From Octopus vulgaris (Eukaryota), in NCBI GenBank assembly GCA_951406725.2, contig OX597825.1, forward strand, positions 60,884,001-60,948,000: DNA of 64,000 nt. The letters are read 5' to 3'. Made by a program: the position numbers and the translations under genes. The notes below the pieces were generated by a model. That model ran no database searches, was not told where the DNA came from, and worked only from the letters and a program-made list of their open reading frames with translations. Positions 1 to 61,922 of this stretch are shown here, piece after piece (the first letter of the stretch is position 1; every line of letters begins with the position of its first letter).

Positions 1-897
1 TATATATATTATATATATATATATGTATGCATGTACACACACACACGCATATATATAAATATGTATATATAGAGAGAAAGAGAGAAAGAGAAAGAGAGGG
101 AGGGAGAAACACTATATATATATATATGTAAAACATATATATATATGTGTATGTATAGTGTACAGTCGAGTACAGGGCAGAAAAATGAAATTAAATAAAT
201 TACGAGGGAATGTGAATGTATGTAATAAATTTCATTAGCTTACAGTCATTTTTTAACCTTTTGCTCTAATTAGAAGCTAGAGCATGAACATAAGTGGGCT
301 ATGTGGCCTACACAGACGTCTAGTGACTAGTGTGAAGATGATGACTTCACCATCTAGAGAACAACACACATTCAAATCATACTCTTTTCCCTTACGCTTG
401 TATGTAAGTGTAATCGAAATGGAAATTCTCGAGGCGGTACCTAGATGTGTTATAAGTTGATTCTTACCTAGTTTTCTTCAATTATAAATACATACACATA
501 CACAAACACACATATACACGTCCATAAGCATGTACACACACAGAGACACACACACATATATGCGTGTGGTGTGTGTGAGACAGTGAGGTAGACGTACATT
601 TAATTAGTAGATATATGAAAAAATCTTAACCTCTGTTTTAAGTATCTGTATGCGTATAAGATACTGTACGCGTAGGCAGATTGCGACTTTGCTGCACGGT
701 CTTTGAGAAATCTTAACCAATTCATCTTCAAATCACATTGTGACAGCATCGTTGTTATGGTTTCTACCACTCTACATCTATCTCCATTCTCATGTGTATT
801 TATACTCTTCATATAGTAGTTATTCATATACCTTTCTGAATCATATAAAAGAATAAAAGCATACATATATATGTATATGTCTCTCATTCTCACCCTG

Positions 898-1008
<111 letters not shown>

Positions 1009-1520
1009 TACAGGTGAAGTTATTCAGCTAAATAGTCATGTATAGCCATAAGTCAAATAGAATTAGACACCAGAACTCTGAACTGAAATGAAAAAATGAT
1101 TAAAGCAAAACGTGTATTTAGTACAGATATATTTCTATAGTGTCTTGCAGTACTTCTCTTCCTACCATTAGTTTACACATCAAAGTGGAATGTAGTAATA
1201 CAACGAAAGAAAACAATTTTATACAAGAATTTCTAAATTAAATTGAGGTTTAATTCAATAATAAGAAATGTTAGAGATTAAAATTTGAAGGACATTAATT
1301 TCGACGAATTCGTTGCAATATTTTATAGATGCATTAGACGAGATTTTAAGATCATTACCTCTAAGTTGTATATAACTACACACATATACACATATGCCTA
1401 TATGTGTGTATTTGCGTGTGTATGTGTGAGTGTGTGTGAGTGTGTGTGCATATGTATGTAAATATATATGTACATATACGTATATGTATATAAATATATA
1501 TATATATATACATAGGCGTG

Positions 1521-1558
<38 letters not shown>

Positions 1559-1813
1559 ATAATCAAGGATAAAGTCATTAAAAATTAATAATTGTATCAG
1601 TGGCCAGCATATAATAAAAGCCATAGAGGTAAAAATCAATATATGAATATATAATTATGTAGATATAATCATAATTAAGGGCACTTAAGGAACAGCACCT
1701 ATATGCTAGAAATAGACGTCGAATGACACTAAACCACTTTGAATTAGCTCTTTGTTAGCACAAGATTGAATGTGAGGAAAATGGATAAACATGTCGTAAA
1801 ATTATCATAGTTA

Positions 1814-1879
<66 letters not shown>

Positions 1880-1962
1880 TGTGAAAAGGAACACACGTGT
1901 TGAAATTTATGAAAAAGCAAGTAAAGATAGAAAATGCTAAAATAATTTTATAAAGAACATTT

Positions 1963-2000
1963 CAGTACCGGTTTCGGTCATTTTGAGACCTTTTCAACTG
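1963..2000 (-). ncRNA. Minimal hammerhead variant, U3-A8 core
   Basis: Minus strand reads CAG-TTGAAAA-GGTC-TCAAAAT-GACC-GAAA-C-CG-G-TA-CTG, with palindromic ACCGGT at stem III. Confidence 0.65.
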
Positions 2001-3841
2001 TAACGATTAAATAATTAAATTTAGAAAAATTAAAAGAAAAGTTTTTTAAAGGAATATTCGTATAGTGTTCAAAGTGGCATTTTCCTTATTTCTGCCTTTC
2101 TCTGTCTCTCTTGTTTGCACTTATGTGTTCGAGGTCGTTGAAAGGCAGAAACAGAGAAGAAGATCATCTTGGGTGGACGCGCGTCGTCTATTCGGACTAC
2201 ATGTCCGACCCACCGGAGCTGACTTGTTAAGATACGATACTTCTTTGTGCAACCGTGATGTACTACAAACCATATTACATGTTTTTATAAGTCAATACCC
2301 TGCACTACTGTATTAGCAGGGCACTTAAATCACATGTTAATGTCACCTTTACAGATTTTCTATTGAAATTATAGCTAGCACTTATTTTGTTATGAGGTAT
2401 TGTATCAGAGACTCCAAATGTAAACAAACAATGAAATTGAAGATGGGAAATGGGTAATGGGCGTATACGACATATTTTGTGAGTTTTTGCTCCTTTATCA
2501 TTACCACTCAAACCCAGTAATGGTCCACGAACTCATTGCTTAAATAGCCACTACATATAAGGGTGTAACGTTATTGGATATGGAAAACCAGTAGAGATGA
2601 CCTTATACGTGATTTAAGAGCACTACTAACACAGTAGTACACGGTATTGGCTTATAAAAACGTTCAATATACTTTGAAGTATATTATGGTTGCATAACGA
2701 AGTGTCGTGTCCCTGAAAGTCATTTATAGTTACGTACCGCTTCCAGGAATATATTTAATATGTAAATTAGCATATCCAATAATGTGCTGACTGTAATCCC
2801 ATGACAGCCGTGTGTGTGTATGTACGTATGTATGTGTGTCTGCATGTATGCAAGCACATTCTCATTTAAAAAATAATTTGAATTTTTTTCCTCTGAGAGA
2901 AAACTAGGCTCTCTGACACCCAGCTCTACCAGTAGAATTTAGTTCCTTGTTTAAGCTTTAGAAAACTTTACAATACTCCATTTATACTGTTCAAATACAG
3001 CATTATACCGTTACTTCCTTGATTTGAAAATCCTAACTTTTCCAAATTATATATGCATCTACCTTTTATTTATCCATTCAAATTTTTCTTATTAGGAATG
3101 AGCTGGTTTGGAACACAGAAAGAATGAATCCACTTACGTATGTATATGTGTCTACGAATGTATGTATAAACTTTGTTTTCCTTACTGATTGACATTTCGA
3201 TAGATTTTGTGTTCTTCTTTTACTTTTCTTTGGACTGGGCATCTAATCAGTAACAAGGTAGCAATGCTGAAAATAAAACATACATATATATTTTAAATAG
3301 TATGTATTTATGTAGAAATATGTGTCTTCGGAAGTATGTGTCGGCCACATCAACATTCAAAGTGTCTACATAATAAGCATATACCAACATGACAAATGAT
3401 AGGTTACATTCATTAAAATATCGCCGTAGAGGACTTACACAACCAAAAGTACAGAAGTACTTCGTTATATAAATTGAAGTGGCCCACTGACCAGGGATAT
3501 AAATAACTTGCTGATTACCCGAGGCAAATATCTCATGAATTGTTCATAAATATATTCTTTTACACTGTCTTTTGATGTGAATGTAATATCTCTGCTTAAC
3601 TAAAACGGACAACGCACTATTCATCTTTACTTTCTCTCTTTCAAACATAACTGCGCTGTATTTGATTTTCATTATCAGATCAATCTGTCAATATTTTTCT
3701 CGCTTTTATACTTAGATGTCTCTGTATATTTTTGTAAGTTAGGATGTGTGCATGCATACATGTATGTATGTATATATCACCCAGTCTTCTTCTCTCTTAC
3801 ACCCATATACACACACACACACACATATATATATATATGCT

Positions 3842-3884
<43 letters not shown>

Positions 3885-3946
3885 GTATATATGAAGAGAG
3901 AGAGAAATAGATACCGATATATACTTACATGTATATATATACATAC

Positions 3947-3980
<34 letters not shown>

Positions 3981-4023
3981 ATATTTATATATATATGCGC
4001 ACACACAAACATCTATATCTATC

Positions 4024-4063
<40 letters not shown>

Positions 4064-4108
4064 CGTGTGTATGTAGGTATACGTCCAATATGATACATTT
4101 TATGTGTT

Positions 4109-4158
<50 letters not shown>

Positions 4159-5229
4159 TATATAGATATGTATGCAAAAAGATACAGAGAGAAAGGGAAG
4201 AGATTGACGGGTAAGGGAGAGAGTGAGAGGGAAGGGGGAGAGGGAATGAGAGGCAGAGAGTGAAAGAGAGAGAGATCTCTACAAAATATTGATTATACAG
4301 AAATTCCTCCCAGGTTTCATGTCTTAATTAGTGCTTCATTAGACATTCATCAGCCGAAGCTTGTTTACTGAACTGGGAATCCATATTTGAAAAACTCTAT
4401 CCACTATTAGTATTACGTGGGTGACATAGTTAGAAAAACTGTCAGCCTTTGAAAGCAAAATTGATATATCCCAGAGAAATAAGAAAATATTCAAGTAGCA
4501 ATTTATGAAGAAAAATTGAATATAAATGAAATAAATCGAAAGACAAATGTAACAAAATGAAAAAAATAAATGCAATATATAGTAAAGGGTGATAGTGGGC
4601 TACGACGAAGCAGTAAAGACATACAAATTATAATCATTAAAGATGAAATACAGTTCACAAAAGTGAAGCAGAAATATGTACGTGTATAGCTATTTATATC
4701 TGATGTATAACATATTACCATATAAATAAATCCTGATGAGCTATTTTAGGATGGTAGTCGTGGTATGTTAGCTTAGACAAAAAATATTTTCAGAATGATT
4801 AGATTTTATAAGAACTTCAGGCTTGAATTTGAAGATTATTCAGTGTTAAGTTTCGTTTTTAAAATAAAGGCCTTTTTCAGCTGTACAAGGATCACATCTT
4901 TTAATTTAGTATTTTGAGTTCTCTAGTTATATCTAATCTAAAATTTCCAAGTATACAAAATATTTCCGATAAATGTTATAGCACATATTATATACATATA
5001 ATCAGTATAAGAAGCTACTCAATAAGACATTCTTAGTTTATATGAAATCCCATGCAAATCTTACAAAATTTTAGATATTGTGACGGAAAATATACCTCTC
5101 AAATTAAGAGTAGCTAAATACACGGTTCACATTACAATTAAGAATCATAATTAAAAGTTACTTTATCAACGCATGGGAAATATAATAAAACCTAAGTATA
5201 TATGAGATCAGATTAGATGGTAATGAAAA

Positions 5230-5830
5230 TTGTAGTTAAATTTAGCAAAAACATATAAAGACAATCAAAAATGGTACAATAACAAAACATGCATTTAATG
5301 ATATAATTTACCAATAACCTTAGTGATGGAGATAGATTTACCCAATTTGACATTACCGATCTTACTCTTGCTAAGAAACACAATGAAGAATATAATGAGA
5401 ATATAATATTTTCAAGATATTTGAAAATGCATGTCATAAAGATTTTAGGTAAAGACTCATTTTCATCCCACCATAGAGATCTTGTCAAGACACGGACGTA
5501 CAACAACGCCGAATTATATAACATTATAAGATTATGTAACATAGATATACGACAAATGCCAATAGACTTTCTCCAGCATTATCAGTGGATTAACTATAAC
5601 TAAATACGCCAGCAATAACATCTTCGACGTATTAAATGAAGAAGTACTTATCCAAGCATTCAGAATATTCGACCTAAAAATAACTATGGACATAAATTTA
5701 ACAATAGTTACCTTCTTAAATGTTATGCTAATTTAAACACTAATTTGCATAGATTCATAATTAAACCTGATAAAAATCTTTTCTATATAAACGTAGGTTC
5801 CTGCCACTATCCGAACTTTGAAAAAGTCTT
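5230..5830 (+). pseudogene. Penelope-like reverse transcriptase remnant
   Basis: Manual translation across frameshifts gives FTQFDITDL, RTYNNAELYNIIRL, DLKITMDINLTIVTFLNV and KPDKNLFYINVGSCHYP. These are colinear with PLE RT motifs FDI.DFYPS, MG.YD.AE, KITIE.N..V.FLDV and KP....YIN..SNHPP. Confidence 0.7.
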
Positions 5831-5969
5831 ATTAGTATCTTCAACATGGGGATTTTCTATTTGTCACTAAACGAGTTCCTACTAAAGCGGCTTCATACAT
5901 TTTTGAAGTCGCTGGATTCGCAGAGAAAGAACACTATAAGTCCAATATCATGAACCCTATCAAAGAATG

Positions 5970-6230
5970 TGGAGGTGCGTGGCTTAGTGGTTAGGGTGTT
6001 GAACTTATAATCATAAGGTTGTGGTTTCGATTCCTGGACCTGGCGATGCGTTGTGTTCTTGAGCAAAACACTTCATTTCACATTCTCCTGTCCACTCAGC
6101 AGGCAAAAATGTGTAATCCTGCGACGGACCGGCGTCCCGTCCATATGGGGAATTTCTACGCCACTGAAACCGGGAAACCGGCCTTTATGAGCCTGGCATG
6201 GCTCAAGAAGGAATATTTATTTATTTTTAT
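5970..6230 (+). mobile_element. tRNA-derived SINE, family C
   Basis: A box TGGCTTAGTGG and B box GTTTCGATTCC. Homologous to 15676-15930, with a (TTTA) tail. Confidence 0.8.
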
Positions 6231-6830
6231 CTAAGAATGGAGACCGTAACATTCTTTGATTTTGACACGTATTTTACTAGATACAGAAGAGCACATCAGT
6301 ACAATATCTGAAATTTTCACCGAGATATAGACATTTTAACAGATATTTCTTGCCTAATTGCATATACCATACTAAACAGTCCCACTAAAATTCTTTTACA
6401 GCTAATTACTGATTAAAATGTTTATATGCCGTGTATCTATTAAGATGTATTGAGTGTATTGCTTACTGACGGTATTTCGCATTTAGTACCCGAGAAATCA
6501 GTGTCTTCATGAAATACCCTCCTTTCATTCCTCCCCCACTCATTTTCTTATCCCACATACTTTAATCCGATCATATTTTGTTTAGTCTTTCATATATTTT
6601 CTAGTTTATTTTCTTTCTTCCGATAACATCTAAATAGAAATAAATGACTCATGCATCCTAAGATTTTCACCCGAAGCAATAATTAATTGTGGAGTTTAAG
6701 TTATTCTTCAAATTTGAATTCTCACGTGGAAGAAAACATACTGAGTCTGAAGAATGGCCAATTAACCAACAATAATACATGAAACTCGGGGTACATAACG
6801 TAGAATAAATATGTTTATATAAATATGTAT

Positions 6831-6876
<46 letters not shown>

Positions 6877-6914
6877 GTGAGTCTGTATGTGCATTTATGT
6901 ATAAATACACACAC

Positions 6915-6956
<42 letters not shown>

Positions 6957-7134
6957 AATATTAGGGAATAAATCCAAATTTACAGGGAAAAATCAGATTT
7001 AGGATTGAATCCAATTTTATAGTAAAATATTATATTATATTAAATTAGAGACAAAACCGCTATTATGCAAATCAAACAAAGAAAGACTTAAGCCAATACA
7101 TAAAATAATTTATATAATTAAATTTAATTAAAAT

Positions 7135-7192
7135 AACCACTACGATCGTTTCGTGTCAGCACTTCTATGAGATATTCATTCTTCAGGTGGTT
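7135..7192 (-). ncRNA. Minimal type I hammerhead ribozyme motif with weakened stem II
   Basis: Minus strand reads AACCAC-CTGAAGA-ATG...CAC-GAAA-C-GATC-G-TA-GTGGTT. Stem I is a perfect 6 bp; there is an A10.1-C11.1 mismatch. Confidence 0.65.
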
Positions 7193-7551
7193 TCAAAACT
7201 CAAAGTTGAAACCACAACCACTGTAACTTCAGCTGTTTTGTAGAAAGGTCAACTGTCTTTGATCTGATCACCTGGTCACTGTTTAAACAACAGCAGATAT
7301 TTAAATCAGATCAACATCCCCTTTACCCCATTTCTATAATTAGAAAACCTTTATTGTCTCCTCTCACTTGTTTTTCATTCTTAGAACCTTAAAGTAGTCT
7401 GGAACAATTGAATCTTAGTCAGTCAGTTGATGAGCTCCACTACATCAAATGTTCTTAAAATTTAAATCCACATCTTTGTCTATGTATCTACCTTCTCTAT
7501 AATGTTGCCACTTGATATGAAAATTTTTGTATTAATGGAAAACCTCTATAA

Positions 7552-7637
7552 TTGGCTGATGAGTGCTCAGCATTTTAAAACTGTTGTAATACTTACAACA
7601 TGTAATAAAATGATGTAGTACGAAACGATCGTACCAA
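7552..7637 (+). ncRNA. Minimal type I hammerhead ribozyme, canonical core
   Basis: TTGG-CTGATGA-GTGCT...AGTAC-GAAA-C-GATC-G-TA-CCAA. Stem II is extended by CATTTTA/TAAAATG and TGTTGTAA/TTACAACA. Predicted cleavage after A7633. Confidence 0.8.
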
Positions 7638-7665
7638 ATTACCGGGTTCATTCTCGTTGCTTATT

Positions 7666-7715
<50 letters not shown>

Positions 7716-8615
7716 ATTTATCTAGCTGTATATACATATAAGCATAAAGAACGGTTTATTTTAGAGAGCGAGAAAGAAAGAGAAAGAGAAAGTGAGAGAG
7801 AGAAAGAGGGAGAGAGTGGATAACATATAGAAGTAAGACCATTTTGTGTTCTATCTCGGAAAAGACAAGAGTTCGTTGGCCAATTTATTATCTGAAACAA
7901 TATTTAATTATTTCCCATAAATGAAATTACTACCATTTCCTCAATATATTAAATTAATTCTTAAATCCTCCAAACGAAAGCATGTTTGGGAATCTGGGAT
8001 TGTGGTTCCTGAAGCTAGACAAGAAGTGGTCAAATTTGGAAAATATCGTTAACAGAACAATTCGCAGAAGATTTCTAACAACATTCGCAGAAGATTTCTA
8101 ACAACATTCGCAAGGAGAAACACTTTTAATGTGAGTCGCGTAAGCGTACATAACACAAAAGTAAAAAAAAACACTCACACACGTACACACATGCACACAT
8201 ACACATATTCAATTGTACGCAGACAAAACAAGAATACATATACAATTTTATGAAGGCATATATTCGGCTCAAAATCATTGGGTTATGGACTAAATTCTGG
8301 GAACAAGCGGCTCGTGCTTGTATAGTCAAGTGACTACATTTCCTTTTGGCCATTTTGCTCATCTGTAAATATTACCATGTTCGTAGCCCTCTCTCACTCC
8401 AGTGTTACGATAAAGAATACTGAAGACAGAGACGTATGATAATAGAATATTCATTCTTATCGTAAACACCAAAATGTTGGTACTACGAACGACAAACACG
8501 GAGATAGTTCGAAGCTTACTCTTCTTAGACTAGGTAAGATAGTAATAGTTTTTAAGATGTTTGCTGGTCGTTGCATTTTGATATCGCCGTCCGTTCATTG
8601 TTTTTGCTTAGTCAC

Positions 8616-8696
<81 letters not shown>

Positions 8697-8938
8697 GCTA
8701 GCTATCTATCTATCTGTCTATCTGGACAGACAGACGCAAGTCAAATGGGCTCCAAGTAAGTTGGTCATTTTGTACGTTCAAAAGTGTTTATTGTCAAATA
8801 TTTTGTGTTTAAAAGTTGTGCAACAACATCCACTGCAAACCTTGATTAATATCTACACAAAATTTCGCCCTTTGTTGGCAAAATTTTAAAAATTCTCGGC
8901 AGCCTCGTGTTGTATTTTAGCCATTTTTATTTTTAAAA

Positions 8939-11118
8939 ATGGCTACTGGTCACCACGAGGCTGAGGCGCAACTGAAGCGTGACGCCAAAACAAAAATGCA
9001 TGATTCCCTGTCACCATGCGCTGAACTTGACTGTGTGAATGCTACTTACACTACCACCACCACAACCACCACCATCAGCATCGACAACAGCAACAACTAC
9101 AAAACAAAGGTCGCAAGGCCAAGCACCGTCACCGCCACCAATGATCCCACCATCAACACCGACACCACCACCATGTCAGCTTCTGCTACTACAACTGCTA
9201 CCTCAGCTAACGACACCACCACCAACAACAATAACAATACCAAGATTACCAGACCAATCACCATCACCGCCACCAAAGACCGTGCCGTCAATACCAATGC
9301 CGCCACTACAATATCTGCTACTACGACTGCCTCCCTTGCTACTAATACCACCGCCGCCACCAAGAACGACAATAACAACAACAACAACAATTCTCTTCAG
9401 CCATTGTTCCCTCCATCACCAACAAGTCAAGGAGAGAAAGAAATAACCGCGACCATCAAACGAGTTGCCGAAATTTGCGCTAATGCAGGGGCAAATTATA
9501 CAGACAACTTTCCACCCTTGATAGTTGCATAATCAGCAACCACAAACCTAATATACCTACAACCCACACCTCTGCCATCAACACCAACACCACCAGCAGT
9601 AACAACAATAACAAAACAACAACAAACTTCGCCGAGGCGATAATAGAAAAAAAGAATAATAGTATCGTTTACTGCACAGCAGATAAAAGACACCAGAGCC
9701 CTAATCACCAAAGATAACGGCAATTACCACAACACGTACTGAATGAGGAAAAAAAGAAAACGATTATTTATAAAATAACAAACAACACAACTAAAAGTCC
9801 AAAAAAAGCAAACACAAACAAAATAGAAAAATGCCTACGCCCCATCTGGGGATACAAAGAGTATGTGACTTGGTCGAACAAGTTTGCCCACGTACAGGTG
9901 GTTTTGCAGAATGAAGAGTTGGCAAAGCAATTCCCAACGCTAACTCTTCATTCAGATGAGCTAACAATGACACCCAGTTACCTTGGCCAGAGGGTAACAA
10001 AGGTCATTATCAATAATGTCCCGCAAATAACAAACACACTATGGATAACATCCGCCATATGCGTCGAAATGGAGGACATAAACATCCTGCAAATCGCTGT
10101 TTCGAAACACAAGGACTGGGTGGAAAAGAGACTGGAGATTCTCCTCCACATAAGCCAAGACGACATTAACAAAATACCCACCCACATACATCTTGCGGAA
10201 GACCACAAGTTGTATGTAGTAGTCGAGGGCAGAAGGCCACGCTGCTATACATGCGGCAGTAAAACACCTCAAAAAGGAGTGCAAATTTGCCGCGAAACAA
10301 CGACAACAACGACACAACAACAGCCGCAGGAAAAACCACAAAAGCCAGCATTATTGCCCACACCACAGTATGGACGGCTAATGAAGAAGCTATATGCAGA
10401 AATGCATGAAAAGCAACAAAGAACGGACCAACCCAACCAAACAACACCACCACCTGCGCCAAGAACAGAATCAACACCACCAACAACAACTAAACCAATT
10501 CCAATACCGAGAACAACAACGAAGAAGACAAGCACCAAGGATGTAGAAGAGACAATCACCACACCAAACCCCCCAGCAACACCCTCCGCACACCACAACA
10601 ATATCTACAACCACACAAACAGACCCAGATACTTTGCCCTTACCCTCTTCTGATTCGTCAGATTTTTCATCTAACGATGAAAGTTCGACAGAATGGCAAA
10701 TAGCCACCGGGGGTAAAAGAAAAAGATTAAAAAACAAACAAACAGGAAAACGCAACCAAAGCGGGGAGATATCTAAACCCACAAAGCTCCATACACAACC
10801 AAACAAGCACCAACACCACAAAAAACACACACAATACTATCAGCGATAGACACCAAAGACTCCAAACTAGTGGAGTACATCACAGCCCACACAAACATCT
10901 GTGAAGATGACTTCAAAACTAACAACCATCCACGCACTACACCACCCAAACACATCAAAATACTACACATCACACTAACACAACACCACACACTCAAAGC
11001 CCTCTTTCCAAATGAGGTTGGGGGGTTCCAAAAATATCTCTCGAAAACACTCTATAAAAACCTTCTCCAAGACACATCAAAGGACGAGGAAGCCAAAACT
11101 TTCGACACAAGGAAGTAA
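8939..11118 (+). pseudogene. LINE ORF1 (gag-like), broken by stops and frameshifts
   Basis: Chain of ORFs 8939-9532, 9865-10653, 10634-10849 and 10870-11118. Contains Thr/Asn-rich low complexity and VVVEGRRPRCYTCGSK. Restoring a 2-bp deletion gives a CX2CX4HX4C knuckle, CYTCGSKTHLKKEC (inference). Confidence 0.7.
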
Positions 11119-11168
11119 CTCTCTGTACCTTCCCTTTTGTGTTTTAAAGCACACACCCCAATAGAATC

Positions 11169-14092
11169 ATGGTCAAGATTGGTTGTGTGAATGCGCGTGG
11201 CTTGGGGTCTCCTTGGAAACAAGGATACCTCCTAAATGACATAAAGTCACACGATTTGGGAATCATAGCCATAAGTGAGACCAGACTCCACGAGCCACAG
11301 GCCCTAAAGTCCATGTTTGGCGGACAGTTTAACATTTATTTTTCTCCCTGTCTGCCGAGGATGGGCGGTAGTGGCACCGCGGTACTTTTTCACAGGAGCC
11401 TGGATCTCAAAGTCAAGACGATATTCGTAGACCCAGAGGGTAGACTGGTCGTTCTGGATGTCGACGGCAGCAATGGGTGCGCTTTTCGACTCGTATCAGT
11501 CTACGCACCGCCTTTAACAGGTCGGCTGGATTTCTTTCGACGTCTAGAAGTATTCCTGGGAACGTCTCGTCCTTTACTTTTAGTGGGGGATTGGAATGCT
11601 ACCTTGGACACGTATCTAGACTATGTGTGGAGAGACAAAAACAGAAGGGGATGCAAATGCCTCAGAGACCTGCTCAGACGATTCCAACTGTCTGACAGGT
11701 ACCGATTCGACCACCCAAATGCACCAACGTGGACATGGAGCAACCGCAGTGGGTCGTCGAGATCGTATCTAGATAGGATACTGTGTAGGACAGTAGACAG
11801 GGATAACTTAGGATGTCCACAATTCCACACAGTCAGCTACACGGATCACAAATTCGTGACGTGTACGCTAGACTTAGATAAGGCACATAGACAGGGTCCT
11901 GGTTACTGGAAACCGAACGCATCTTTCCCGTCCAGACAGGTTTTCAGAGACAGAATCAACACGTTAGTAAAAAGGGCTTTAACGGGAGCCATTGTCAACA
12001 ACAATTGGTGGTTCGCCCTCAAGAGAGCAGTAAAAGCGGAAGCAATTAGATATAGCAAGGCACTAGCCGTAGATAGAAATAGAGTAGAGGGTGAATTAGT
12101 TAAGAAGTTAGAAGAGGCATCACATCCGACGTTTTAGCGGCGAGGTTGGCCCTTGACCAACACTTCAACGCCAAACACGAAGGGTGTGCTGTCAGGGTTA
12201 GGATGCGTGCTCTAAGGATGGATGGCATTGGAGCCGCGAGGGAGGCCCGGGTGGCGGAAGCGCAGCAGGGCAACAAAGCCACTATTCGGTCTCTGGTAGA
12301 TGAACAAGGGCGCGAATTGCTCGAGCCCAGCAAGATGTGCGAGGCATTTCAGCGGCACTTTGCCCGACTGTACGAGACGAGTGGCGAGCGTGAACGCAGG
12401 GTGGACTTCAGTGCCTACGTGCACAGCCTACCACGACTCTCGGCAAGAGAGGCAGAGTGCTGCGAGGGTGCCATCACGGCGGCAGATGTGCGGGACGCAA
12501 TGGCAGAATGCTCGAGAGACAAATCGCCGGGTTTGGATGGTCTGCCCTACGAGTTTTACAATTGTATGCCAGACTTGTTTGGAGACGTCTTGGCAGCGGT
12601 ATACTGCAACTGGCAGCAAAACGGGAGCATACCCGGTTTTGTGAGTCGAGGAGCCGTAACGCTGCTGAAGAAAGATCCAAACAAGGGGGACATTATAGAT
12701 AACTTTAGACCAATCACCCTGCTCAATGCAGACCTGAAAATTTTGATCAAGGTGTTAGCCAAGAGGTTGGCGCTTGTCATCGAGAAACTGGTCGACAACG
12801 CACAAACGTGCGCTGTGCCGGGCCGGAGCATCCATGACAACCTCCATCTGATGCGCTACATCATAGACAGAGTAGTTAAGGAACTTGGCATGGGTGGGGC
12901 CCTGATCAATTTGGATCAATCGAACGCCTTCGATAGGGTAGATCATCGATACTTGGAGGCAGTCCTGAGAACGGCTGGTTTCGGTCCCGTCTTCCGCGGC
13001 TGGATAGCTGCCTTGTACAGAGGCATCCGTTCAGTAGTTCGCATAAATTGACATCTCTCGAGACCTTTCGACATTGCACGTTCGGTCCGTCAGGGATGCC
13101 TCTCGTCGCTTCTATACGTATTGACTCTCGAGCCACTACTGCGGAAGCTGGCGACTCTGAGGGGCATCCCGCGAGAATTGGGATGCGGGACGAGCGTGTC
13201 TGCATACGCGGACGACGTAACCGTCATAGTGTCAAGCCACGAGCACATCGAGCTGGTCGGCGAGACACTGAAAGACTACGAAGCGGTGACAGGAGCAAAA
13301 ATCAACCGGGAAAAGTCAGTGGGCTTGCGGCTCGGCACCTGGAGAAGCAAGCCCATGCCGTCCTCCGTCGTGGGACGCTGGACCGACGGCCCGGTTGAGT
13401 TGCTCGGGGTCTGGTTCGGCCCGGACCTCCAAATGGAGAAGAACTGGAACGAGATAACGAGTAGGGTGGTCACTCTCGCCCGGCAATGGGCCGAGAGGAA
13501 ACTGTCCCTAAAAGGTCGGGCGGAGGTGGCGAACACGTACATCGCGTCCATCATCTACTACCGCCTGACCGTCGTACCTTGTCCCGACCCCACCATCACC
13601 AAACTAGAACGCATTCTCTTCCGCTTCTTGTGGAAAGGATGCGTCTCGATGGTCAGGCGATCCATTTGCTGTCAACACCCGTTGGCACGCTGAGACTGCG
13701 ACATCTCCGGCTCTATGTAGACGACGGTAAACAGTTGTGGTCGCCGTTTGTGAGGCACGCATTCCCGCAGCTCGTCTTCATGACCGAACTGCAGTCGTGG
13801 ATCAAAAAGAGGCCGAGGAAGGGCGAATGGCACCGCGAGTGTCGCGTTGCTCTCAAGCAACTCTGCCGTCCCGGGTCGACATTGAGTGACTTCAACACAA
13901 CCAAAGCATTCTATAGGGGATTAGTGGAGTGGGATACGACGACGATCTTGGGGCAAACTTGGGCGTCGACGAGGAATACCTGACCCGCCTGTTTGAAACG
14001 ACTTTCGGGCCGGGACCTATGGACAAATTCCAGAGATCCCTGGCCTGGCGGTGCTACCGAGAAGCGCTACCCGTTCGGGATAAGCTCTATAG
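11169..14092 (+). pseudogene. LINE ORF2: apurinic-like endonuclease plus reverse transcriptase (disrupted)
   Basis: APE motifs VNARGL, IAISET, VGDWNA, SYLDRI, YTDH. RT motifs KSPGLDGLPYEFY, FRPITLLNADLKIL, LDQSNAFDRVDH, SVRQGC, AYADD. In-frame TGA at 13049-13051 and frameshifts near 12.13, 13.10, 13.69 and 13.93 kb. Confidence 0.93.
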
Positions 14093-14241
14093 GTTGAGCA
14101 CTGGCATTGATGTACCTGACTTACTCCCTCCCCCGACAAGTTGGCCTTGCCCTAAAATTTGAAACCAATATTTCTTATTTTCGTACCTTGCTGAATAGGG
14201 CAGATGTAGAAAAATTTAGGCCTAATGTCTGGCATTTTAAT

Positions 14242-14291
<50 letters not shown>

Positions 14292-14540
14292 TGCATATGT
14301 GCGTGTATGTAGCAGGCCTCTGCCTTCATTCTGCTGGATTTCCACCTTCGATCCACATCTTACTCATAGAACCATAAAAGGCAACTCTCTGAAGGAACAG
14401 AACATCCATGTAAATGTTTACCCGCCAGCAAACGTAAACCCGGAAGAAATGCAGCTAATCCTTTCATTCGGGGTGCAAAGGATTCTCCTACCTCGCCGCT
14501 TTTTTTCTTCATTATAATATAGATGCACATAAAGTAATGA

Positions 14541-14758
14541 GGGGGGTAAGCTGGCAGAATCGTTAGCATGCTGGTCAAAAGGCTTAGCGGCATTTGGTCT
14601 GTCTTTATGTTTTTAGTTCAAATGTCGCCGAGGTCGACTTAGCTTCCCATCCATTTCCGGGATGGTAAAATAAGTATCAGTTCAGCACAGCGGGATTCAA
14701 TGTAATCGACTTACACCCTCTTCTGAAATTGCTGGCCTTGTGCCAAAATTTGAAACCA
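14541..14758 (+). mobile_element. tRNA-derived SINE, family A (Meta-domain-like), alternative tail
   Basis: GCTGGCAGAATCGTTAGC head, GTTCAAAT B box, tail GCTGGCCTTGTGCCAAAATTTGAAACCA. Confidence 0.75.
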
Positions 14759-15675
14759 GCGTAAAAACCTATTTTTTTTACATTTGTAAGATGTACTCAG
14801 TTAAATGAAAGGAACGTATAGAAACACCTATTTATTTTGTATGGTCATTCTTGTTGACGAACGCAGCCTCTTCCTTAATTGCTTATTATTAACGACATAA
14901 CAATGAACACAAAAATCTCATGTCTGACATTTGTTCCAACAGAAATAGCTACAGACATCCTTTTCACTGTTGCAGCACGAGTAGCGATGTCTGTAAGTAA
15001 TGAGGAATTAGTAACTGAAACGGTGCATTAATATAGAAAAATTTACGTTTCAAATGTAAATGGTGCTTTGGTACTGCAAATATGTATAAGTAGTGAAGAT
15101 CTGAATAAATACTGTAAACAGTACTTTACTACTGGAAATAGTACACTGATATTGTAAATATGCATTAGGAAGTAGCGCACTGGTGTTTATATGGTGTAGT
15201 AATACTGTAGATGTAATATTGAGACTGTAAATGAGTGCTGGCATTGTGAAAGATGCATTACAAAAGTAAACTATGCATTCCTATTGTAAATGTGCATTAG
15301 TCCAGTAAACTGTGCATTAGCAATATAAACAGTCTGTTGGTACTGTTAACGGTGCATTAGAACAGAAAGTATATAAGAATGATCTAAGTATTCAGTTCCA
15401 TGATTTCGAAATAATTTATTCGTTTACATTCCCTGTGGTTACTGTTTAACAGTTCAGCCTTGATTCCGTAAACCTTTAATCATAAGTGCTCCATCTTTGA
15501 TGATCCTCCGTCTTTACAGACTCTAACGTCATTGTCTAGGGACTCATTGATTTCTTAAAACAAGAGACGTGAAGAAGAAGCAGACGCTATTTGTATTGAG
15601 AGAAAACACTTTCTAGAGGATTTTTCGTTGGCTAGTAACGTTTATTACTGTTATAACGAGGGTATATAGGTCTTG

Positions 15676-15930
15676 TGGAGGCGCGTGGCTCAGTGGTTAG
15701 GGTGTCAGCTTCATGATCGTAAGATTGTGATTTCGATTCCTGGACCGGGTGACGCGTTGTGTTCATGAGCAAAATACTTCATTTTACGCTGCTCCAGTCC
15801 ACTCAGCTGGCAAAAATGAGTAACGCTGCGATGGGCTGGCGTCCCGTCCAGCTGGGGAACACATACGCCATAGAAACCGGGAAACCGGGGCCCATGAGCC
15901 TGGCTAGGCTTTCAAAAGGGCGCATTTATA
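15676..15930 (+). mobile_element. tRNA-derived SINE, family C
   Basis: TGGCTCAGTGG...TTCGATTCC head. Body shared with the 5970 copy. Confidence 0.8.
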
Positions 15931-16452
15931 TATATAGGTTTGGTGTAAAATGGCATTACACATAAATAGTTGGTTGTGGTTATCTAAAAATAACCTATCA
16001 CATAAATATGTCAACACAGAACGCATTCCGTACTACTCAAACGTAAGTATATAATACTCAATATTCACTGTTCAACTACCGACTGTTAAAACAACACACG
16101 TCTAACTAACACGGTTAACCAACACTGTTACAACACGGCTAAACTAACACCGTCCACTAACCGCTTCACCCACCACTCACAGTTCACTCACTTCTTATTT
16201 ATCGTAATCGGTTAGTCCACCTTCAGTCCCGTGGGGTTGTTCAGGATCCTCCCATAACAATTACCGAGCGTTCACAATGGATTCTCTATTAATTAATCCC
16301 AAAGTAATATAGCCTTAGTCATAGCTGTGCACTTAACAAATTTGCTTGACAATCGTGGGGTTTCATTTTGAGATCCACTTCGGGGCACCTTGGGCAAGTA
16401 TCTTCTATTATAGCTTAGGGCCGACAAAAGCCTTGTGTGGATTTGGCGAATG

Positions 16453-16699
<247 letters not shown>

Positions 16700-16734
16700 G
16701 CCTGTCGTTTGTGTGTATATACTAATATCTTTTG

Positions 16735-17085
16735 TCTTTCATCTTTTAGTTGTTTCCGTCATTAGACTGCGGCCATGCTGGTGCACCACTTTGCAGAATT
16801 TTTAATTTATGGAATCATCCCCAGTAATTGCTTTTGAAGTAGGATACTTATGTTATCGGTCTCTTCTGCTAAACTGCTATGTTACGAGGATGTAAATATA
16901 CCAACACCAGTTTCAAGTGGTTGTGAGGCACAAAAATAGACATAAAGACACACACACACACGCTCATATACGATAGGCTTCCTTCAGTTTCCACCTTCTA
17001 AATCCACACACAAAACTTGGTTGGCTCGAATCTATAGCAGTAGACACTTACCTAAGGCGCAATGCAGTGGGACTTAACTCAAAAC
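16735..17085 (-). mobile_element. SINE family B, degenerate
   Basis: GACTGCGGCCATGCTGG...CTTCAGTTTCC...GCAGTGGGAC. Confidence 0.7.
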
Positions 17086-17115
17086 CAACATGTGCGTGCG
17101 CGTGTGTGTGTATGA

Positions 17116-17173
<58 letters not shown>

Positions 17174-18087
17174 TTCTGTCACTTTGTTTTGACATCGCGT
17201 GATAGTTGTAAATGACAGTCACTGCTATACAACCAGTGTCATTCGATTCCAGTGTTCGCCGAAAACCTGTCTGTTTATGAGAAAATATTACCTTGCTTTG
17301 AAGCAAGTGCAGGTTGGCGACAGAAAGGGTATCTGACCGTAAAATCAATCAATCCCAACGAATTTCGTCAGGCAAGGGAAATCGAACACTAAGCGATGAG
17401 TATAGCGATGATGATGGTGATGGTAGTGGTGGTAGTGGTGGTGATTACGACGACGACCACGATGACACCAATGATGATGGTGATGATAATGTATTACTGG
17501 TAACTGGTGTATATAATATACTCAAAGAGCGAACGGCAAAGATGGCTGCCGTACGACGGAAAATGAATATAAAGGGAGGTAAATGAGTACTACACAGTAT
17601 TAAGTACAGTAACCTATTGTATATGCCAAAATCACTTCTCTTTACTGTGTATAATATAAATACTGGATCTCAGATTTTATCTGACTGTCTGTGATATTGT
17701 AGATATTGTGTCAAGAATACAATATGGCATTTGAACGTTCTCCGTGCTTATAGTTACTTCGCTACCCACCCGTCATTCTTCCATGCTTTTGTCGATCAAA
17801 AACCGTTGTTTATGTGAAAGCTGTCAGTAGCAGTTAGTATATTCCTGGTTTTAATGCCATCTCTTTATCATTCCAATCAAATAAACCAAAATATTGGCAC
17901 CAATTACAATCTTGTAGCAACACTGTGAATAAACAAACCAAGTGCACGAACGAACTTTCAAATGTCATGTATATTTTCTATCTTTGATAATCTATGCTGC
18001 ATCATGTGTCCGTGCGCGTACAGACGTGTGTATATGTGTGTGTTTATATAGATATATATAAACATATATATAAATCTACACACACAT

Positions 18088-61441: not shown

Positions 61442-61922
61442 AGATAAGACAGTAAGGTGTGATTTGAGGGAGATTTGGCTGCTATTTCTACCATGTCTAG
61501 CTGCCATGTAGGGGTCTCCCTCATAGGCTCATACATACATATATACATAGATAAGACAGTAAGGTGTGATTTGGGGGAAATTTGGCTGCTATTTCTACCA
61601 GGTCTAGCTGCCATGTAGGGGTCTCCCTCATAGGCTCATACATACATATATACATAGATAAGACAGTAAGGTGTGATTTGGGGGAAATTTGGCTGCTATT
61701 TCTACCAGGTCTAGCTGCCATGTAGGGGTCTCCCTCATAGGCTCATACATACATATATACATAGATAAGACAGTAAGGTGTGATTTGGGGGAAATTTGGC
61801 TGCTATTTCTACCAGGTCTAGCTACCATGTAGAGGTCCCCCTCATTGGCTCATATATATATACATACATAAGACAGTAAGGTGTGATTTGAGGGAGATTT
61901 GGCTGCTGTTTCTACCAGGTCT
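61442..61922. repeat. 107-bp tandem repeat, about 4.5 copies
   Basis: Units start at 61442, 61549, 61656, 61763 and about 61868 (AGATAAGACAGTAAGGTGTGATTTG...). Confidence 0.95.

Follow-up and report, generated by a model that had tools for sequence, protein, structure and literature searches.

A 715-bp unit at 6953..7667 of the window, the 64-kb stretch of Octopus vulgaris DNA analysed here, lies between two (TA)n tracts and carries a hammerhead ribozyme motif on each strand, which raises the question of whether the two ribozymes belong to one element copied from either polarity or were brought together from different sources. An earlier sequence-only reading had offered both possibilities, an ambisense ribozyme retroelement family and a fusion of ends from two families of Penelope-like elements (PLEs). 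Our analysis indicates that both hammerhead motifs are real, that their architecture is already known and that the unit most likely combines the ends of two PLE-type families into an inactive composite confined to this locus. It consists of an arm on the minus strand (arm A), a middle segment and an arm on the plus strand (arm B), with the following features.

6918..6952 (run to 6953), no strand: left (TA)n tract, putative target half
6953..7197, minus strand: 3' end of family A, high-copy, PLE-type, 5'-truncated at ~7197
6960..7033, minus strand: tandem pair of 37-nt repeats (70% alike), bounded by the alternative 3' ends of family A
7135..7192, minus strand: type I hammerhead motif of family A, stem II broken at this locus
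7187..7215, no strand: perfect 10-bp inverted repeat spanning the junction of family A and the middle
7198..7315, no strand: low-copy middle segment of 118 nt, without protein or Rfam match
7316..7667, plus strand: 3' end of family B, high-copy, PLE-type, 5'-truncated or replaced at ~7316-7318
7552..7637, plus strand: type I hammerhead motif of family B, canonical core and long stem II
7668..7711, no strand: right (TA)n tract, putative target half

Much of this layout had been recorded from the letters alone and holds. The tracts flank the unit on both sides (6918-6953 and 7668-7711), the unit has no ORF (the longest ATG ORFs inside it are of 38 and 39 aa) and the two hammerhead cores, one per strand, lie where they had been placed, facing outward with predicted cuts after 7633 and 7141, 493 nt apart as against the ~490 nt given earlier. 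As the window contains 39 (TA)n tracts of at least 8 units, the TA flanks alone say little at this locus. The shared stretch of the two arms is a single 14-nt motif (local alignment score of 28, against a mean of 21.9 and a maximum of 32 in shuffles); a simple recent inversion of one element was therefore rejected, in line with the earlier view that the two motifs have the stem III palindrome in common and differ in stems I and II. A hammerhead pattern in which stem II was not required has two matches in the window; 100 third-order Markov copies averaged 0.14, and two or more matches arose in 2 of them. A search of Rfam gave no hammerhead match at gathering or E-value level for either motif, and weak Rfam matches to snoRNAs and miRNAs were rejected as chance.

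Parts of the unit are contained in 20 of 24 public runs, the best of which holds 0.51 of its words, and all contigs of four of the 24 (X1, X3, X5 and X6, from three organisms) were compared with it at 80% likeness. In total, 9,225 contig records were aligned, with 32 pieces listed. The window's own locus, species or allele is probably absent from these four runs, contigs lose rare forms and some records were filtered before listing. X6 is only guessed to be RNA, and its pieces are no evidence of transcription or of circles.

The plus-strand motif has all core bases and stems I-III of a type I hammerhead. Stem I is formed by 7552-7555 and 7634-7637, the core by CUGAUGA (7556-7562) and GAAA (7622-7625), the pair G10.1-C11.1 (7563/7621) closes the long stem II and stem III contains the ACGAUCGU palindrome, with a GUA cut predicted after 7633. 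The 101-nt region of the motif folds with z -3.2, and in a 128-nt context the pairs of stem I reach 0.39-0.74 and those of stem II ~0.8. By our own reading, the family B variants in the stem II arm (7565, 7599, 7600, 7602 and 7620) keep or improve pairing, and the variant at 7563 (~20% in X1) breaks the closing pair of stem II. Two of the five variants could be plain CpG decay.

In the minus-strand motif, stem I (7192-7187/7140-7135, 6 bp), the core (CUGAAGA at 7186-7180 and GAAA at 7152-7149) and stem III are present, with a GUA cut predicted after 7141, and a paired stem II next to the core is absent: no pair stands beside the core, A10.1 lies opposite C11.1 and two further pairs follow (z of the fold, +0.5). 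Completeness of the hammerhead thus stands for the plus motif and fails for the minus motif, the stem II of which is broken at this locus. In most family A contigs the four bases at 7173-7176 are absent or a gapped form occurs close by. Without these a 4-bp stem II forms, the A-C mismatch being retained, and the constrained fold reaches -6.3 as against -0.2 kcal/mol; as removal of the four extra bases restores stem II, the copy at the locus is damaged. An ATG of family A lies at the start of stem II (7177-7179, minus strand) and is followed here by a stop within a few codons; the ORF of the anole element Poseidon starts at the corresponding position of stem II (PMC11167929).

The family contigs also define where each arm ends. 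TA-rich sequence follows family A at 6957 in 23 contigs of X1 and 21 of X5, and at 7031 in 19 contigs of each of these runs; these alternative 3' ends, ~74 nt apart, span both 37-nt repeats. The repeats look like a doubled form of the PLE tail, which is described as optional and of 30-40 bp (PMC8557442, PMC11167929). In family B, a short extension alone stands behind 7666 before TA-rich sequence follows (21 contigs in X1). At the other end of arm B, seven X3 contigs run on before 7318 into other sequence, in which a 9-bp hairpin is possible by eye.

The depth of the contigs divides the unit into the same three parts (arm A, middle and arm B) in all four runs. Summed contig depth, which is not a copy number, amounts in arm A to ~0.7-2 million at the outer end and to 645-4892 at 7169-7192 in X1, X3 and X5; these depths are ~15,000-85,000 times and 44-103 times that of the middle, respectively, the ratio over the hammerhead being 480-730, and family A extends by ~4-9 letters into the bin 7193-7216. 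In arm B the summed depth of the same runs rises from ~1,000-18,000 at 7313-7336 to 100,000-650,000 at 7577-7624, or, relative to the middle, from 120-390-fold at 7313-7336 to 10,000-13,000-fold over the hammerhead. The inner ends of the two arms have depths of the same order. Gradients falling inward are the pattern expected of 5'-truncated retrocopies with opposite polarity, and in both arms the polarity read from the gradient is that of the hammerhead strand. The middle 118 nt form a third, low-copy component that was absent from the earlier two-part reading.

An ambisense, non-autonomous family with two ribozymes, copied from either polarity, would have its arms linked in one unit in many copies. 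Among the joints listed for the four runs there is none of arm A to arm B. Opposite-strand joints occur within family B (three, each on one contig, in X3 and X5), along with one skip and one back-jump (121 nt, in one X5 contig), and none is listed within family A. At 7217-7264 the depth in all four runs is exactly that of one contig, and no contig extending over 7197/7198 contributes to it. From contig depth and joints, family A, the middle and the bulk of family B are distributed separately in these runs, which fits a fusion between the ends of two PLE families; the claim of an ambisense retroelement family finds no support in them, the arms being unlinked in four of four related data sets that are not the window's own genome. 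In these related data sets the outcome largely agrees with what the earlier reading had named as its refutation, halves that occur together at this locus alone. The hammerhead on each strand and the similar order of depth at the inner arm ends speak for such a family, which could be a young, species-restricted fusion or one whose usual middle is different. If restricted to one species it may escape runs that come from related data sets and contigs that lose rare forms. With the folding evidence given below, we consider this reading highly improbable.

The middle segment bears on a different alternative, that of two separate events, in which an older copy of family B stood beside unique host DNA and a fragment of family A inserted at a later time, 118 nt upstream of it, or two independent insertions came to lie side by side through a deletion. 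In each run the middle is found on one contig (depths 47.5, 63.5, 9.58 and 8.31) with 3 differences; it is nearly identical across the three organisms, and two of the listed differences are common to all four runs. Such a low-copy and conserved segment is favourable to two events, and the middle may be no more than sequence flanking a family B copy that was already in place. Alternatively, it may derive from a conserved host RNA; it folds as two hairpins (z -3.0 on the minus and -1.95 on the plus strand). In X6, the run only guessed to be RNA, it sits on a contig of 442 nt. On the side of arm B, the middle contigs end at or near 7315, as they would beside a repeat: a second low-depth record begins near 7282 in X1 and X5, and the middle contig of X3 has 26 unaligned letters beyond 7315, which would correspond roughly to the overrun of a 31-mer contig into an adjacent repeat. 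Both families are very abundant and TA tracts are as dense as noted above, which again suits independent insertions. On the side of arm A, the middle contig starts to align at 7198 (7200 in X6) and thus leaves the window sequence there in four of four runs, with 146-326 letters further left unaligned to arm A. Two events would require that the at least 146-326 letters found ahead of the middle in these runs were lost, and that both 5' ends were joined to non-TA DNA 118 nt apart; moreover, the 64-kb window contains no other copy of family A or B. We regard this account as possible, though rather doubtful.

The junction of arm A and the middle is spanned by the perfect 10-bp inverted repeat, eight of whose ten pairs are predicted at 0.97-1.0 in the minus transcript; inverted repeats of this kind start at 28 positions in the window, mostly in simple repeats. 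The repeat also bears on whether the unit is an assembly chimera produced from collapsed repeats between two microsatellites. In favour of a chimera, none of the contigs listed covers the unit from end to end, and short-read assemblies are described as having trouble with complex PLE insertions (PMC8557442). Against it, the middle is unique and complex sequence, the inverted repeat at the A junction is not expected from a mis-join, the copy differs privately from its families throughout and the window has no N. A chimera is accordingly a highly unlikely explanation.

Both 3' ends adjoin (TA)n, the stretch between the arms is free of TA tracts and an inverted repeat stands at the A junction; one insertion is therefore the simplest account, and we give about an even chance to the reading that a single Penelope-like insertion into one (TA)n tract brought the end of family A, the 118-nt middle and the end of family B together. 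In such an insertion, a GIY-YIG endonuclease would nick the (TA)n on its two strands. Reverse transcription would start from one nick on a family B RNA that carried the 118-nt segment or from which synthesis jumped to it, and from the second nick on an RNA of family A. The cDNAs would both end early and be joined head to head, and the 10-nt inverted repeat may be the trace of a fold-back or of microhomology joining. As the flanks are microsatellites, no empty site or target-site duplication is readable. The product would be a dead passenger, in which each hammerhead was brought by the terminal repeat of its own family and the two have no joint function.

We also looked at whether the two hammerheads could nevertheless act together. 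Each strand has one predicted cut and no tandem copy of the unit is present at the locus that could supply a second cut or a dimer in cis, which makes a joint function doubtful; equally, neither strand would get the two cuts needed for the unit-length circle of an ambisense family. Symmetrical dimers through the palindrome are predicted for both motifs (-53.0 vs -46.2 and -29.2 vs -17.8 kcal/mol). The 10-bp junction hairpin lowers the predicted pairing of the minus-motif stem I from 0.69-0.90 to 0. In the transcript of the whole unit, the two copies of the shared 14-nt motif are predicted to pair with each other across its ends (0.69-1.0), leaving both hammerheads with a stem I value of 0, which tells against an ambisense family; this argument is weakened as arm B folded alone likewise gives 0 for stem I and folding programs discriminate poorly here. 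For such a family speaks the circle from cut to cut, which folds better than its shuffles (z -7.0 plus, -2.9 minus, 20 shuffles each) with 59-64% of bases paired. When the pieces are folded one by one, the hammerhead arm of B has z -2.7 and the middle -1.95 and -3.0, as against 0.1-0.7 for arm A and for arm B upstream of its hammerhead; the signal is that of local hairpins and the shared 14-nt motif. By these models the two hammerheads probably do not work as a pair.

Sequence searches were made with the inner part of the unit and with the family patterns. None of six frames of the inner part matched Pfam, a word search with two inner frames gave no protein match and applying the majority differences of the families opened no frame. 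A full HMMER match to a tandem-repeat ORF of Hexamita was rejected, its score being summed over 11 stretches. The pattern of family B had no match in metagenome contigs or in prokaryote genomes. Three metagenome matches to the pattern of family A were taken as chance, as only 25-26 nt were common and the flanks unrelated, and one viral match to the gapped core pattern was rejected for want of stem I. Elsewhere in the window, a heavily decayed ORF-like stretch at ~4900-5900 (plus strand), without a Pfam match, resembles in its wording the start of a PLE endonuclease of the GIY-YIG type; it lies ~1 kb from the unit and may be what is left of an old PLE. A broken LINE with AP-endonuclease and RT domains lies at ~8900-14100 (plus strand), with Argonauta hians (54%) and Acanthosepion pharaonis (44%) as the best named relatives, in keeping with a cephalopod host, and a 107-nt unit is repeated 4.5 times at 61442-61922 with 96% match.

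The unit resembles several known systems. Viroid-like circular RNAs likewise have one ribozyme motif per strand within ~500 nt; here, however, the motifs lie in chromosomal DNA, in separately amplified halves and with no sign of multimers or circles. Animal non-LTR retrozymes are also non-coding, carry type I hammerheads and are proposed to be PLE-derived (PMC7229834; bioRxiv 10.64898/2026.07.22.740005). They differ in being head-to-tail tandem arrays with ribozymes on one strand, whereas single motifs on opposite strands are found here and no head-to-tail hammerhead array occurs at the locus. If the ambisense reading were true, genomic retrozymes would be linked to viroid-like RNAs and the unit would be a chromosomal counterpart of ambisense RNA.

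The closer parallels are with PLEs themselves, for which outward hammerheads on opposite strands are already published. Cervera and De la Pena 2014 (PMC4209133) describe PLE remnants of Schistosoma mansoni in which two minimal hammerheads occupy opposite strands at a distance of 100-700 bp, and report low, dimer-dependent activity. Two opposite-strand type I hammerheads, a palindromic stem III and proposed dimer cleavage are common to both; unlike the Schistosoma motifs, family B has a stem II arm of 59 nt and no extra base between 9 and 10.1. The EN+ Penelope elements of Adineta vaga have inverted pLTRs, an optional 31-bp tail and junction palindromes, and capture unrelated non-coding host DNA between solo pLTRs (Arkhipova et al. 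2013, PMC3846280), which resembles the middle and the junction repeat of the unit. Their pLTRs within an insertion come, in contrast, from one family, some target-site duplications are readable, and the sections of PMC3846280 on the two PLE types compared there report no evidence of cross-mobilisation. Frangieh et al. 2024 (PMC11167929) show that a purified PLE protein cleaves the target on both strands and extends each of them, and that hammerhead cleavage is dispensable in vitro.

Families A and B are likely PLEs, as judged from motif and architecture; an RT or endonuclease frame was not found. In agreement with PLEs, both carry their hammerhead in sense orientation close to the 3' end, occur as dispersed, mostly 5'-truncated copies ending in (TA)n (X1, X3 and X5) and, in family B, have inverted 5'-truncated partners (the three opposite-strand joints). 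To judge from the hammerhead form, the (TA)n ends and perhaps the 37-nt repeat as a putative tail, the nearest group is probably the Hydra clade, which includes the octopus member Hydra-1_Obim (Craig et al. 2021, PMC8557442). PLE insertions normally carry an inverted 5'-truncated partner and (TA)n is the target of this clade (PMC8557442). The unit shares with the clade this target, a type I hammerhead, a short stem I and a palindromic stem III of 3-4 bp. In most tabulated rows of the clade the hammerhead lies ~30-150 nt from the 3' end, the distance here being 30 nt in B and 104 or 182 nt in A. Stem II of family A is closed by a mismatch, a frequent trait of the clade that is tabulated for many PLE hammerheads (PMC8557442). 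Neither inspection by eye nor a motif search in the supplement of PMC8557442 matched either arm to Hydra-1_Obim; the locus points to two abundant hammerhead-bearing cephalopod repeat families without a match to that element in this comparison. The main text of the Octopus vulgaris repeat annotation, in the sections available, does not mention ribozymes, and its repeat library may already include A and B (PMC13282606).

The two-family make-up is the sole unusual point of the unit. In the Hydra clade, Penelope-13_HM has hammerheads on both strands through an inverted truncated copy (PMC8557442), in the same layout as here; the unit differs from the clade in that its arms belong to two families with a third piece between them. 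Inverted partners in the PLE descriptions that we found are of the same family as the main copy, and the literature searched gave no description of an inverted pair built from two families. The origin of inverted PLE structures is named as an open question in PMC8557442. If the reading of a single insertion is true, the mirror arm of Penelope insertions can derive from a second RNA, besides fold-back.
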